From the NCBI GenBank assembly GCA_951406725.2, contig OX597821.1, positions 84,010,001-84,074,000 on the forward strand: a DNA stretch of 64,000 bases, read 5' to 3'. Under the pieces are notes generated by a model, which searched no databases, was not told where the DNA came from, and saw only the letters and a program-made list of their open reading frames with translations. A program made the translations under genes and the position numbers. The stretch is from Octopus vulgaris. Lineage: Eukaryota. Below are positions 8,461 to 58,019 of the stretch, in pieces (the stretch's first letter is position 1; every line of letters begins with the position of its first letter).

Positions 8461-8794
<334 letters not shown>

Positions 8795-18171: not shown

Positions 18172-18464
18172 TATATATATATATATACGTAGATATATAG
18201 ACGGAAACTGAAAGAAGCCTGTCGTATGTATATATGTGTCTGTGCATGCATTTGTTTGTGTGTCTGTGCTTGTCCCCCCCCCCCAACATCGCTTGACAAC
18301 CTATGCTGGTGTGTTTACGTCCCCGTCACAAAGCGGTTCGGTAAGAGAGACCGATAGAATAAGTCCTGGGGTCGATTTGCTCTACTAAAGGCGATGCTTC
18401 AGCATGGCTGCAGCCAAATTAGTGAAACAAATAGAAAAAGGATATATATATATGTATATATATA

Positions 18465-20387
18465 TAACATAAGGGACTAAAGCCATCTGAATATGGCTAG
18501 GGACAGGGCAGGGTGGTGGGGGTGTTACTGTTGCATTTAGCCCCAGGCGAACATCGACGTCACCAGAAAGGCCCGACACCGTCACGGTGTCCTTAACCTG
18601 CAAAGGGAGGTAATTCCCCGATGAAGCGGAAACCACACACGGACCATGGTTTCAAGGTGTATTGCTTATCGTCGGCGTGTGGTAGGCTTCCGCTTCCTCG
18701 ACGAATTCTCACTCTGCAGGATATTCATATATAGATTTTCAAGCAAAATACATTTGCTGATTTCGAAAATCTGTTCGAAAGCAATAATAATTCTCTAAAA
18801 GAGATATAGACAGTAACTGCTCGATAACATAAGGGACTAAAGCCATCTGAATATGGCTAGGGACAGGGAAGGGTGGTGGGGGTGTTACTGTTGCATTTAG
18901 CCCCAGGCGAACATCGACGTCACCAGAAAGGCCCGACACCGTCACGGTGTCCTTAACCTGCAAAGGGAGGTAATTCCCCGATGAAGCGGAAACCACACAC
19001 GGACCATGGTTTCAAGGTGTATTGCCTATCGTCGGCGTGTGGTAGGCTTCCGCTTCCTCGACGAATTCTCACTCTGCAGGATATTCATATATAGATTTTC
19101 AAGCAAAATACATTTGCTGATTTCGAAAATCTGTTTGAAAGCAATAATAATTCTCTAAAAGAGATATAGACAGTAACTGCTCGATAACATAAGGGACTAA
19201 AGCGATCTGAATATGGCTAGGGACAGGGCAGGGTGGTGGGGGTGTTACTGTTGCATTTAGCCCCAGGCGAACATCGACGTCACCAGAAAGGCCCGACACC
19301 GTCACGGTGTCCTTAACCTGCAAAGGGAGGTAATTCCCCGATGAAGCGGAAACCACACACGGACCATGGTTTCAAGGTGTATTGCCTATCGTCGGCGTGT
19401 GGTAGGCTTCCGCTTCCTCGACGAATTCTCACTCTGCAGGATATTCATATATAGATTTTCAAGCAAAATACATTTGCTGATTTCGAAAATCTGTTTGAAA
19501 GCAATAATAATTCTCTAAAAGAGATATAGACAGTAACTGCTCGATAACATAAGGGACTAAAGCCATCTGAATATGGCTAGGGACAGGGCAGGGTGGTGGG
19601 GGTGTTACTGTTGCATTTAGCCCCAGGCGAACATCGACGTCACCAGAAAGGCCCGACACCGTCACGGTGTCCTTAACCTGCAAAGGGAGGTAATTCCCCG
19701 ATGAAGCGGAAACCACACACGGACCATGGTTTCAAGGTGTATTGCCTATCGTCGGCGTGTGGTAGGCTTCCGCTTCCTCGACGAATTCTCACTCTGCAGG
19801 ATATTCATATATAGATTTTCAAGCAAAATACATTTGCTGATTTCGAAAATCTGTTTGAAAGCAATAATAATTCTCTAAAGAGATATAGACAGTAACTGCT
19901 CGATAACATAAAGGGACTACTGTTGCAAGCCAGGCGAACTGAATATGGCTAGGGACAGCGGCAGGGTGGTGCCTATCGGGGTGTTACTGTCACTGCATTT
20001 AGCCCCAGGCGAACATCGACGTCACCAGAAAGGCCCGACACCGTCACGGTGTCCTTAACCTGCAAAGGGAGGTAATTCCCCGATGAAGCGGAAACCACAC
20101 ACGGACCATGGTTTCAAGGTGTATTGCCTATCGTCGGCAATATAGACCTTGAAACCATGGTCCGTGTGTGGTTTCCGCTTCATCGGGGAATTACCTCTTT
20201 GCAGGTTAAGGACACCGTGACGGTGTCGGGCCTTTCTGGTGACGTCGATGTTCGCCGGGGCTAAATGCAACAGTAACACCCCCACTACCCCTTCCCTGTC
20301 CCTAGCCATATTCAGATGGCTTTAGTCCCTTATGTTATCGAGCAGTCGAGCGTTACTGTCTATATCTCTTTTAGAGAATTATTATTG

Positions 20388-20389
<2 letters not shown>
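18465..20389 (-). mobile_element. Retrozyme/PLE-pLTR-like array: about 4.6 tandem 360-bp monomers plus an inverted partial copy, flanked by (TA)n
   Basis: Exact 360-bp period (taacataagggactaa at 18465, 18825, 19185, 19545); one HHR per monomer; inversion at about 20138. Confidence 0.85.
18996..19041 (-). ncRNA. Type I hammerhead ribozyme in the 360-bp monomer (also 18636-18681, 19356-19401, 19716-19761, partial about 20097-20138)
   Basis: CACACG-CCGACGA-U-AGG(CAAUACA)CCU-U-GAAAC-CAUG-GUC^CGUGUG: 6-bp helix I, U4C core variant, palindromic helix III ACCAUGGU, GUC triplet. Confidence 0.8.
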
Positions 20390-20454
<65 letters not shown>

Positions 20455-20570
20455 GAGGGCATTATTATACATACATACCACACGCTAAGAGGGACAATTA
20501 GTCATTTCTACCAAAAAATTTTACTAATCCCACCGAATGCAATTTTTCAAAGTATGACATTTAAAAATAT

Positions 20571-20619
20571 AGACTTGTATCACCTGTGATTTCATACCTC
20601 TGTATTCATCAGCAAGCCT
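20571..20619 (-). ncRNA. Mirror copy of the canonical hammerhead
   Basis: Exact reverse complement of 20675-20723. Confidence 0.9.
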
Positions 20620-20674
20620 CAACGTATCATAAATAAACGACCCTGAGGTAGGGTCGTTTATTTATGATACGTTC

Positions 20675-20723
20675 AGGCTTGCTGATGAATACAGAGGTAT
20701 GAAATCACAGGTGATACAAGTCT
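20675..20723 (+). ncRNA. Canonical type I hammerhead ribozyme
   Basis: AGGCUUG-CUGAUGA-AUAC(AGAG)GUAU-GAAA-UCA(CAGG)UGA-UA^CAAGUCU. All core nucleotides and three helices are present; predicted cleavage after 20716. Confidence 0.9.
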
Positions 20724-20966
20724 ATATTTTTAAATGTCATACTTTGAAAAATTGCATTCGGTGGGATTAGTAAAATTTTTGGTAGAAATGACTAATTGTC
20801 CCTCTTAGCGTGTGGCATGTATGTATAATAATGCACTCTATATATAAATTAATATGTTCAATGAGAAAGAATTATTTTCGAAATTTTTTCTCTTATGAGG
20901 TCTTTCACGCTATCTACCTGATAATTTCTTGTTAAGTTTTCCTTATTAAGAAGTTGTCCTTAATTG

Positions 20967-21569
<603 letters not shown>

Positions 21570-22599
21570 GACGGGCTTCTTTCAGTTTCCGTCAACCAAA
21601 TCCACTCACAAGGCTTTGGTCGGCCTGACGCTATATTAGAAGATATCTGCCCAAGGTGCCACGCAGTGGGACTGAATCCGGAACCAAGTGGTTTGTAAGC
21701 AAGCTACTTACCACACAGCTATTCCTGCGCCTATCTCCAGAAAACTGGAAAACCCCTAAATCTGGGCCAGATCCGGTCCCAAGCTTGCTGGATATTTGAT
21801 CTGGTATCATATTTAGCAGTTAATATATAAATTTGTATTCTTTTGGCCTAACATTCGTCAACTCATGAAACTAAGATGAAATACGTTGGTATATTAGACA
21901 TTAGTGGAAGAAAACAGTCTACACAGTCAAGGTGGAGATCGGATTATAGGAGTAAGTGAAGGATTATTAGATATACAATTTGATTCATTTAGGGAGGGAG
22001 GGTTCGTATCGGGCCAGTAACCAATCAAAATCGTTATCGCTAACTTCGCGCGCCGAAGTGTACGTTATGCTAATAGCGTTCAAGGACGTCTATGCCGCAT
22101 GACACAACCCAGGCAGTTCTAAACAGTTGCTGCACCTTAATTTACAAATATATACACAACAGAGTACAACTCACTTCTGTGGTGAATCATTCACTTCACA
22201 CATACACACATTGCTCATATTCTTCATAAATAAAACCATAAAAACAGCATTTGCGGTTGGCTAGCAAATTTTCATCTATCAACAATCACGATTATAGCTT
22301 TGAAAAATTTCAAGATATAATTTTAACATTTTACATAAATTTGAATCCACGAACTTCTAAGCCTGGTTATTTTTGTAGATATTCTTCGAAGATGTGACTT
22401 AAACCTTTCACACGATTAGTTTAAATTTAAGACGGAAAATTTGCAGTTACTTATCTTTTATTTGTTTCGGTCATTGGACTGAGGTTATGCTGGGGACACC
22501 ACCTTAAAGGGTTTTAGTAAAACAAATCGCCGCTAGAACTTATCTTTTAAGCTTAGGGTTTATTCTGTCGGCCGAAGGTTGTCAAGCGGTGTGGCACTC

Positions 22600-22674
<75 letters not shown>

Positions 22675-22711
22675 TATAGATATACACGACGGGCCTTTTT
22701 TTAGTTTCCAA

Positions 22712-23341
22712 TTTCTTTGCTGCCCACAAGTGGCTACACGCAGAGAGGACAAACAAGGACAGACAAACGGATTAAGTCGATTATATCGACCCCAGTGCGT
22801 AACTGGTACTTATTTAATCGAGATCGAAAGGGTGAAAGACAAAGTCGACCTCGGCGGAATTTGAACTCAGAACGTAGCGGCAGACGAAATACCGCTAGGC
22901 ATTTCGCCCGGCGTGCTAACGTTTCTTATTTCTTTATTGCCCACAAGGGACTACACACAGAGGGGACAAACAAGGACAGATAAACAGATTAAGCCGATTA
23001 CATCGATCCCAGTGCGTAACTGGTACTTAATTTATCGACCCCGAAAGGATGAAAGGCAAAGTCGACCTCGGCGGAATTTGAACTCAGAACGTAGCGGCAG
23101 ACGAAATACCTATTTCTTTACTACCCACAAGGGGCTAAACACAGAGAGGACAAACAAGGACAGACAACCGGATTAAGTCGATTACATCGACCCCAGTGCG
23201 TAACTGGTACTTACTTAATCGACCCCGAAAGGATGAAAAGCAAAGTCGACCTCGGCGGAATTTGAACTCAGAACGTAACGGCAAACGAAATACCGCTAAA
23301 CATTTCGCCCGGCGTGCTAACGTATCTGCCAGCTCGCCGCC
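22712..23341 (-). mobile_element. SINE family B tandem trimer inserted in a diverged family A copy
   Basis: Three units containing GAGTTCAAATTCCGCCGAGGTCGACTTTGCCTTTCATCCTTTCGGGGTCGATAA; only the outermost has the full GGCGGCGAGCTGGCAGA head. Confidence 0.9.
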
Positions 23342-31376: not shown

Positions 31377-31538
31377 GAGAAGAAAATGGATATAATAACA
31401 TTGGGAAGCTCGTGGTTTTCGCCGGTATGTCTTTAATTAATTAGATAACAAAGAACGAAGGAGCAAATCTAATTAAAGACATACCAGCGAAAACCATGAG
31501 CTTCCCGATGTTAATGTATCAATTTTCTTCTCCTATAT
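31375..31538. repeat. Diverged palindrome abutting (TA)n
   Basis: gagaagaaaatgga...gggaagctcgtggttttcgccggtatgtctttaatta / taattaaagacataccagcgaaaaccatgagcttccc...attttcttctc. Confidence 0.85.
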
Positions 31539-32422: not shown

Positions 32423-32841
32423 GTTTCTTATTTCTTTATTGTCCACAGGGGCTAAACATAGAGGGGACAAACAAGGACAGACAAAGGGATTAAGTCGATT
32501 ACATCGACCCTAGTGTCTAACTGGTACTTAATTTATCGACCCCGAAAGGATGAAAGGCAAAGTCGACCTCGGCGGAATTTGAACTCAGAACGTAACGGCA
32601 AACGAAATACCTGTTTCTTTACTATCCACAAGGGGCTAAACACAGAGAGGACAAACAAGGACAGAAAAACGGATTAAGTCGATTACTTCAACCCCAGTGC
32701 ATAACTGGTACTTATTTATACGACCCCGAAAGGACGAAAGGCAAAGTCGACTTCGGCGGAATTTGAACTCAGAACGTAGCGGCAGACGAAATACCGCTAA
32801 GCATTTCGCCCGGCAATGCTAACGTTTCTGCCAGCTCGCCG
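32423..32841 (-). mobile_element. SINE family B tandem dimer
   Basis: Two units with the same junctions as the 22712 trimer. Confidence 0.9.
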
Positions 32842-48469: not shown

Positions 48470-48890
48470 GTAATCGTTGGCACGCTGGACGAAATGCTTA
48501 GCGATATTTCGCCCGTCGCTACGTTCTGAGTTCAAATTCCGCCGAGGTCGACTTTGCTTTTCATCCTTTCGGGGTCAATAAAGTAAGTACCAAAGAAACA
48601 CTAGGGTCGATGTAATCAACTAGTCCCCACCCTCAAATTTTCCGGCCTTCTGCTTATAGTAGAAAGGATTATTATTGGTGTAATCGTTGGCAGAATCGTT
48701 AGCACGCTGGACGAAATGCTTAGAGATATTTCGCCCGTCGCTACGTTCTGAGTTCAAATTCCGCCGAGGTCGACTTTTTCTTTTATACTTTCAGGGTCAA
48801 TAAAGTAAGTACCAATGAAACACTGGGGCTGATGTAATCGACTATCCCTCTCCTCCAAATTTCAGGCCTTGTATCCATAGTAGACGGGTT
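48470..48890 (+). mobile_element. SINE family B, two tandem copies with the alternative tail
   Basis: Body repeated at about 48480 and 48690. Confidence 0.85.
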
Positions 48891-49405
48891 TATTATTGGC
48901 ATAAGGACTCTCCCAAGAAAGCAACGAAATTTATTTTACGCGCGAAATCGCACTAAAAATCATACAAACCAAATACAAAAAAGCATCTGTTCTTAAATCT
49001 CTTCGTAGCCTCCACCAATTGGAACATCCTCTTTTTGGTTTGAGGATCTTTCAGAATAAATTGCACCACGTACTTTGGTTGCCTTTTAAAGGTAGTTTAA
49101 AAACTGCCATTCTGGAGCACTGCCTAGAAGTGCTTTTGTCGAACAATTTGACCCCAGGACTTATTTTTAAACCTAAAGCTTATTCTATTGGTCTTTTTTA
49201 CGAACCACTAAGTTACGGGAGTCAATAAACACTCCAACACCGGTTGTCAAGCGATGATGGGGGTGGGGACAAACACAGGCACAAAGACACACACTCATAT
49301 ATATGCGTGTGTGTGTGTGTGCGTGAGTGTGTGTGCGTGCGTGCGTGTGTGTGTGTTTGTGTGTGTGTATGTGATTGTGTGTGCGTGTGTGTGGTGTGTG
49401 TGTGC

Positions 49406-52443: not shown

Positions 52444-53028
52444 ATATATGTCAGGTTCTATACAGGACTGTGTCCTATACAGGACAGTGCTACTGTTGTT
52501 TTTAGCCCCAGAAAGACATCTCCTCCAGCTGGCTAACGACACTAGTATTTGTGAGGGAGGTCATTGCTCCCATCTCTAGCCTTACGTGATACACATGGAC
52601 CCGAGTTTCTGACTGGTTACTCGTCTTCAGCATGCATTAATCACTGGCTAGTGATGAAAACTATTTCCACTCGCAAAATTACTATATGCTTTTCTAGCGA
52701 CTCACTGTCACTGATCTCGTAAAAGAGAGAGATTTGTTATATTAAATCTCTGAGAGAGATATAAACAGTAGCAGTACAGAATCATAAAATATATTTGCCA
52801 ACTAAGTGTGGCGTCCTATACAGGACAATGCTACTGTTGTTTATATCCCCAGGAAGACATCTCCTCCGGCTGGCTAACGACACACAGTCTGTGTCCGATA
52901 CATACATACATACATACATACATACATACATACATACATACATACATACATACACATACATACATGCATACATGCATACATACATACATACATACATTCA
53001 TTCATACATACATACATACATACATACA

Positions 53029-56284: not shown

Positions 56285-56288
<4 letters not shown>

Positions 56289-56483
56289 CTTATAATTTAA
56301 CACACTCACCGGTAAAATTTCCACTTATTCCTTATTTTTATTTTCCTAAAATTTTCGTTGCGTCTTGCAACCTTTTCAATAGTCTTGACTCTGTCCGTTA
56401 TTTACACTGTGTTTGTGCGCATGTGTGTGGGTCAGTGTGTGTGTGGAAATTTTACTGGTGAGTGTGTTAAATTATAAGGCGCA
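56285..56483. repeat. Inverted repeat (~40-bp arms) enclosing a decayed HHR motif on the minus strand (56346-56382)
   Basis: Arms gccttataatttaacacactcaccggtaaaatttccac and reverse complement; CUA-UUGAAAA-G-GUUGC(AAGAC)GCAAC-GAAAAUUU-UAG. Confidence 0.65.
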
Positions 56484-57087: not shown

Positions 57088-58019
57088 GGATAAGGGAAAT
57101 TATAGAAGGAATACATCCAGGCAATCAATACAAATACCAAAGTATAATCTAAAACACACAACGAAATAAATATACACATAAATTTATAAATCATTGAACA
57201 AAATTACATGTAAAAGTCATATGTAAAAACTATGCATCATGTAACTACTATATGATGATATCCTTTACCCGAATTCACTCGAATATGTATATATTTTTTT
57301 TATCTACCTATTTACCCCTGAATTTTAAAATGTTGAACTCTCATCCGACATTTCGTATAAACATCCAATTCTTAATCGATTCGAACAGTTCCTTTTGGAA
57401 GCCCTTAACTCGAACTTTTATCTCTTTATTTGCCACTCCTCCATTCGCTACTCTTTTACTTGTTTCAGTCATTTGACTACGGCCATGCTGGAGCACCGCC
57501 TTTAGTCGAGCAAATCGACTCCGGGACTTATTCTTTTTTTTGTAAGCCCAGTACTTATTCTATCGGTCTCTTTTTGCCAAACCGCTAAGTGACGGGGACG
57601 TAAACACTCCAGCATCGGTTGTCAAGCAATGCTAGGGGGACAAACACAGACACACAAACACACACACATACATATATATATACATATATACGACAGGCTT
57701 CTTTCAGTTTCCGTCTACCAAATCCACTCACAAGGCATTGGTCGGCCCGGGGCTATAGCAGAAGACACTTGCCCAAGATGCCACGCAGTGGGACTGAACC
57801 CAGAACCATGTGGTTGGTTAGCAAGCTACTTACCACACAGCCACTCATGCGCCTGAACCCAACGTACATAATGCATACTTTTCATATGACTTTTATATGT
57901 AAGCTTGTTCACTGATTTATAAATTTATGTGTATATTTATTTCATTGTGTGTTTAAAATTATGCTTTGAAATTTGCATTGATTGCCTGGATGCGTTCCTT
58001 CTATAATTTCCTTTATCCT
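57088..58019. repeat. Diverged ~155-bp inverted repeat with a full SINE A (57452-57853, minus) in the spacer
   Basis: ggaaattatagaagga...catccaggcaatcaat...cataaatttataaatca matches the reverse complement at 57864-58019. Confidence 0.8.

Follow-up and report, generated by a model that had tools for sequence, protein, structure and literature searches.

Organization of the array and its hammerhead motif

The window analyzed here, a stretch of 64,000 nucleotides (64 kb) of Octopus vulgaris DNA, contains many microsatellites and SINE-like repeats. Within it, a tandem array of a 360-bp unit is followed by a truncated copy of the same unit in inverted orientation, with TA repeats on both sides. 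The features of this region are as follows.

18443..18463, no strand assigned: TA-rich microsatellite, the presumed target, left of the array and after a dispersed SINE-like repeat (18198-18436)
18464..19902, minus strand: four full 360-bp units (the last of 359 bp), the sense strand of the element being the minus strand
19352..19403, minus strand: type I hammerhead motif of unit 3, predicted cleavage at 19362/19361, in the same place in each unit
19903..20138, minus strand: 5'-truncated fifth copy (unit positions 1 to 213)
20122..20142, no strand assigned: inversion junction, a 7-bp stem (20122-20128 with 20136-20142) and a 7-nt loop
20136..20338, plus strand: inverted 5'-truncated copy (unit positions 203 to 1), starting in helix II, without the core CCGACGA
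20339..20389, plus strand: 3' extension (tail) of the inverted copy, 44 nt of the unit (51 nt with a 7-nt insertion)
20389..20454, no strand assigned: (TA)33 tract receiving the inverted arm
20445..20967, no strand assigned: second hammerhead family, a head-to-head palindrome with 97% arm identity and a 5-nt loop

The direct array (18464-20138) holds 4.6 copies of the unit, which has a GC content of 46.4% and is noncoding, the longest methionine-started frame in the six frames being 50 amino acids. The full units differ from unit 3 at one to three positions each, and the 3' end of the array, at ca. 18464 to 18467, adjoins the TA repeats and has no tail. One variant, T313, is common to units 2 to 4, rare in the sequencing reads, and absent from unit 1, a pattern more easily reconciled with a mixed template, or with local expansion at a later time, than with repeated copying of a single circle. 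Short insertions cluster at 19911-19993, 20143-20147, and 20347-20353, several of them templated from elsewhere in the 360-bp unit. Those at 19911-19993, in the fifth copy, are 1 to 7 nt long, and three of them sit in strings of 9 to 10 nt that recur elsewhere in the unit; four insertions flanking the junction, one of them immediately past it, lie in strings of 8 to 10 nt that are also present on the plus strand of the unit. All of these may stem from errors in the consensus or be scars of repair, and base-level detail here deserves limited trust.

The hammerhead motif occupies positions 169 to 220 of the unit. In unit 3 it consists of a 6-bp stem I, the core CCGACGA (carrying U4C), a 3-bp helix II closed by U-U, GAAA, a palindromic helix III, and UC; in the other units, cleavage is predicted at 18642, 19002, 19722, and 20104. 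By our own descriptor the full motif is present in four units. Unit 1 has one change in helix II, which is impaired, the hammerhead of the fifth copy lacks the 5' strand of stem I, and both motifs beside the inversion junction are incomplete. The descriptor matched seven times in the window, compared to once in 20 shuffled windows, and all seven matches sit in head-to-head structures or in the 360-bp array. Rfam gave no match at gathering score in the window, and one unit submitted alone gave two chance matches and no hammerhead; a metagenome scan with a 22-nt motif returned no loci. The minimum free energy fold of the monomer (-20.9 kcal/mol) differs from the hammerhead fold (-4.4). U4C is a natural hammerhead variant with lower activity in vitro (PMC3088659). 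The unit may be described as carrying a predicted self-cleaving hammerhead ribozyme.

Elsewhere in the window, a sequence about one monomer in length at 52486-52861 is related to the 360-bp unit but diverged from it (alignment score of 99; the highest score among 100 shuffles was 42), and in it a hammerhead-like motif can be made out by eye on the minus strand near 52590-52632.

The inversion junction

The first-pass annotation had described the array as turning, through a GGC microhomology, to the opposite strand at helix II and running from there ca. 250 bp to (TA)n, with both 3' ends facing outward into TA repeats. We recovered the same arrangement. GGC at 20136-20138 (unit positions 211 to 213) is common to both arms, closing the direct copy and opening the inverted one. 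The inverted arm then runs from unit position 203 down to 1 and on from 360 down to 317/318, ending at 20388/20389 against the (TA)n of 20389-20454, and on the left the array adjoins TA at 18464. The outward 3' ends are offset by 44 nt, a feature missed in the annotation, the left one stopping at unit position 1 and the inverted arm continuing for 44 nt; this tail is found on the inverted arm only and is known here from one locus. The overlap at the junction is exactly 3 nt. Given that an overlap of at least 3 nt arises in 5.3% of random head-to-head joins in the unit, the microhomology alone is weak evidence.

The breakpoint does fall inside the ribozyme, as had been claimed, the direct arm ending at unit position 213 and the inverted arm starting at 203. 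It could be the ribozyme that sets the breakpoint, self-cleavage or ribozyme structure ending the template and inversions starting inside the motif. Besides the junction at 20136-20138, three of nine joints of the family found in sequencing reads (see below) lie within the motif, and the center of a palindrome at 461-788 adjoins the half-motif GAAACGUA. However, cleavage is predicted at 20104/20103 and after 20162, which puts the break 32 to 34 nt (direct arm) and ca. 25 nt (inverted arm) 5' of the site, and a junction 24 to 34 nt upstream of the predicted cleavage site indicates that the template end was not a self-cleaved end. An origin of the break at the cleavage site was therefore rejected. 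Moreover, with the motif making up 49 of the 309 visible positions, three read joints of nine do not amount to significant enrichment (p = 0.16); the palindromes at 20445-20848 and 1027-1145 are centered outside their own motifs; and hammerhead mutants left insertion by a tested Penelope-like element (PLE) unchanged (PMC11167929). We consider it very improbable that the ribozyme determined the break, and the position, to which the annotation had attached some meaning, is probably incidental.

Other head-to-head elements in the window

The element at 20445-20967 carries CUGAUGA motifs at +20682 and -20612 and continues on its right side for 119 bp before the next (TA)n. It has the same geometry as the focal array and is a separate insertion with a common TA tract. 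A repetition of this geometry had also been seen at 461-788, and this was borne out only in part: the element is a TA-flanked palindrome (84% arm identity) and has the same polarity if its half-motif is a hammerhead remnant, but it belongs to a family unrelated to the 360-bp unit, to which it shows no match. Its center consists of a hairpin and then GAAACGUA, like a minimal hammerhead cut in helix II, and ca. 75 bp of extra sequence precede the next TA tract.

At 930-1145 there is a head-to-head inversion; its long arm contains a hammerhead-like motif in degenerate form, with the core CCGAUGA at 1032 on the minus strand and a nonstandard cleavage triplet. Inverted-repeat elements by TA or TG repeats, in which a hammerhead was not detected, are located at 8467-8686 (a perfect 220-bp palindrome), 31377-31532, 56288-56479, and 57088-58018 (with a SINE-like repeat between the arms). 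At 21098-21732, 22704-23294, 32431-32795, and 48472-48899 there are two SINE-like repeats in inverted orientation, along with short tandem duplications of 184- to 222-bp period that are apparently SINE derived. On the minus strand, ca. 1650-2100 shows by eye, in its motif, some likeness to a Tc1/mariner transposase fragment.

Family joints in sequencing reads

Comparison of the junctions at other loci of the family, proposed in the annotation as a check, was carried out with 4 of 24 listed runs (X1, X2, X5, and X6), aligned to 19760-20395 at 90% likeness. The family was very abundant in X1, X2, and X6. Thirteen joints were listed. In nine of them the sequence switches from the antisense strand of the element to its sense strand (three in X1, two in X2, and four in X6), and in none is the direction reversed (p = 0.004 if independent); that is, all nine readable joints are head-to-head. 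This count excludes two opposite-strand rows of X5 and the row 20138>19760, all three being ordinary tandem continuation, and the X2 row 20093/20138, whose polarity is unreadable. The nine joints represent other loci of the family in three public DNA runs of three studies, each seen in one contig with a short side of 21 to 29 nt, and the two X2 rows may be a single event.

Breakpoints of these joints are scattered over unit positions 92 to 328, with overlaps of 0 to 2 nt and gaps between the two breakpoints of 2 to 180 nt. In eight of the nine the gap is 43 to 180 nt, which fits independent cDNA ends, and in the remaining one (X6, 20116>20148) it is 2 nt. Sense restarts cluster at unit positions 31 to 49 in six of the nine, a pattern given no weight here, the inverted arm being the only place where this region of the unit maps cleanly. 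In one X5 contig, a loose end runs out of the element into non-TA DNA at about the position of the tail-less end of the focal array. Another, contig 17 (391 nt, about one unit plus the word-length overlap), closes on itself, as a monomeric circular RNA would, a result that tandem DNA gives as well, and the RNA status of X5 is a guess.

With respect to the focal junction, no contig bridges 20138/20139 among the 32 pieces listed (2052 others were unlisted), and the junction is neither confirmed nor refuted by them. In the bins of 19936-19979, in the fifth copy, depth is 0 in X1, X6, and X5 and 3 to 7 in X2, with values of ~10^5 beside them in X1 and X6; this hole proves nothing, and depth in the junction bin cannot tell bridging contigs from ordinary contigs of the family. 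The extreme abundance of the family in the reads, the lack of a bridge among the listed contigs, and the short insertions on either side of the junction, four of them in the recurring 8- to 10-nt strings, would all suit an assembly or polishing artefact, in the junction or in the whole inverted arm of this very high-copy repeat. Yet a chimera produced by fold-back would be a mirror image of the array together with its flank, instead of stopping at a 44-nt tail and then entering TA, and the polarity agrees with that of the nine readable joints and of the neighboring palindrome. An artefact thus seems unlikely to us.

The polarity bears in the same way on a later rearrangement, in which the array came first and the inverted duplication was produced by a DNA break or by a template switch during replication, the templated insertions being repair scars. 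Microhomology-mediated repair leaves microhomology and templated insertions at its junctions, and the 3-nt microhomology and the templated micro-insertions near this junction resemble its products. Later repair, however, predicts neither a single polarity in nine of nine joints nor an arm that ends at the tail position beside TA, and we regard it as decidedly improbable.

Proposed PLE-driven insertion

In published PLE insertions, a partial tandem is accompanied by an inverted copy that is truncated at its 5' end, one end carries a tail of 30 to 40 bp, and there is a bias toward microsatellites or (TA)n (PMC8557442, PMC3846280). Rotifer PLEs have head-to-head palindromic junctions (PMC3846280), and a lizard PLE protein in vitro cut and extended AT-rich DNA on both strands, the ends of the tail matching its two start sites of reverse transcription (PMC11167929). 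Opposite-strand hammerhead pairs 100 to 700 bp apart have also been described (PMC4209133). In its tandem units, its 5'-inverted copy, its tail, and its (TA)n target, the focal locus matches the published structure of PLE insertions. The annotation had already noted this likeness, which is strengthened by the 44-nt tail and the head-to-head polarity of the other joints of the family. Overall, a PLE origin appears likely.

As to how the insertion was made, we propose that the hammerhead-motif array, with its 5'-inverted copy and one-sided 3' tail, was written into (TA)n by a PLE reverse transcriptase (RT)/endonuclease from two primed cDNAs, an interpretation that we put at an even chance. A PLE enzyme acting in trans would nick both strands of the TA tract and prime two cDNAs at start sites 44 nt apart. 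The first nick would prime at the tail-less start, and ca. 4.6 units of a circular or multimeric RNA would be copied from it, or fewer with later local expansion; the second would prime 44 nt further along and copy 250 nt. The 3' ends of the cDNAs, GGC and GCC, could then pair and prime the second strands, the break in the ribozyme being a stop in synthesis and not a product of self-cleavage. These enzymatic steps are all ones that we infer; what the DNA itself shows is the array with its motif and head-to-head inversion, an overlap of 3 nt, 3' ends offset by 44 nt, and TA on either side.

In favor of dual priming we count the two 3' ends entering TA with an offset of 44 nt, the uniform polarity of the joints, the loose end in X5 at about the tail-less end, and the confinement of the seven hammerhead-like matches to head-to-head structures or the array. 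To these we add a minor variant, A46, that is common to the inverted arm and direct unit 2, the adjacent fifth copy having C. Against it we count a tail slightly longer than the published 30 to 40 bp, a target-site duplication that is illegible inside TA repeats, and the state of the read evidence, with no listed contig across 20138/20139 and a single contig for each of the nine joints; the T313 pattern counts against laps round one circle. No RT or GIY-YIG domain of an autonomous PLE partner was found in the array or in the 12 of 61 window frames of at least 130 amino acids that were sent to Pfam, where only three unrelated matches appeared, below cut-off, and this we count against the PLE reading.

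Also against dual priming, the two breakpoints are at most 10 nt apart, which a fold-back explains more simply. Self-priming by fold-back within the same PLE insertion is the main rival: the GGC at the 3' end of the cDNA would pair with the GCC 7 nt upstream and copy itself, and the endonuclease would resolve the hairpin at the tail site. A 3-bp terminal stem with a loop of up to 7 nt, as found here with a 7-nt loop, is possible at only 33 of the 360 unit positions. Loops of 0 to 30 nt are also seen in the window's five other self-complementary palindromes, the gap of the X6 joint 20116>20148 is 2 nt, and self-priming has been proposed for PLE palindromes (PMC3846280). On the other hand, none of the insertions in the neighboring direct copy reappears in the inverted arm, which carries A46 against the C of that copy, the gaps are wide in eight of the nine read-derived joints, and the arm ends at the tail site, which is a start of reverse transcription in the tested PLE (PMC11167929). 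If real, the distribution of A46 and T313 speaks against self-copying of a simple kind and in favor of a mixed template or of subsequent expansion in place. We consider a fold-back somewhat doubtful.

Comparison with known systems

The 360-bp array fits the metazoan non-LTR retrozymes (Cervera and de la Pena 2020, PMC7229834; Li et al., preprint 10.64898/2026.07.22.740005), its cleavage being a prediction only. Shared features are noncoding tandem units (360 bp here and ~170 to 400 nt there), a type I hammerhead motif whose helix III is short and palindromic, present in every unit where two in a row would suffice, and a high copy number. The GC content of the array (46.4%, versus <45%) is marginally above the descriptive threshold, and its core has U4C. 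Mobilization of animal retrozymes by PLEs was proposed in the same two sources from shared ribozymes, co-occurrence, and pLTR homology. Word searches of their text turned up no terminal copy in inverted orientation, nor, in the preprint, a tail. A PLE scar on a retrozyme array was likewise not found in that text or in the literature listings searched, and listings on octopus, Penelope, and hammerhead gave nothing on the 360-bp family.

The focal locus is a PLE scar of known type on a retrozyme-like array, and the structure itself, already described for PLEs, would not surprise a PLE specialist. Its value is as structural evidence for PLE enzymes mobilizing retrozymes, an enzyme-specific scar being more direct than the earlier arguments. 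With it, two published models can be told apart by a genome-wide count of array ends: insertion in one step of tandem cDNA made from a circle, and local pLTR amplification. We see the chances as evenly balanced that retrozyme arrays in this genome carry the full PLE scar around the whole multimer, having been inserted ready-made in trans, from a circular or multimeric RNA and with dual priming, and not grown locally from a solo pLTR. If true, thousands of copies would be a natural readout of PLE priming and end-joining.

LINE-1 twin priming likewise starts two cDNAs from two nicks in the target, and their joining through microhomology produces a 5' inversion. The second primer in that case anneals at an internal site, and it is upstream sequence that becomes inverted. 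In contrast, both arms of the array carry the 3' end of the element, and there is no poly(A). Endonuclease-bearing PLEs (Penelope/Poseidon, Neptune, Nematis, and Naiad; PMC8557442, PMC3846280) differ from the array in that it has no RT/GIY-YIG open reading frame (ORF), 4.6 short units in place of an ORF and pLTR, and a tail of 44 nt; Naiads are without canonical hammerheads. What these elements share with it is the partial tandem, the head-to-head inverted 5'-truncated copy, the short overlap or palindrome at the junction, the one-sided 3' tail, and the (TA)n target.
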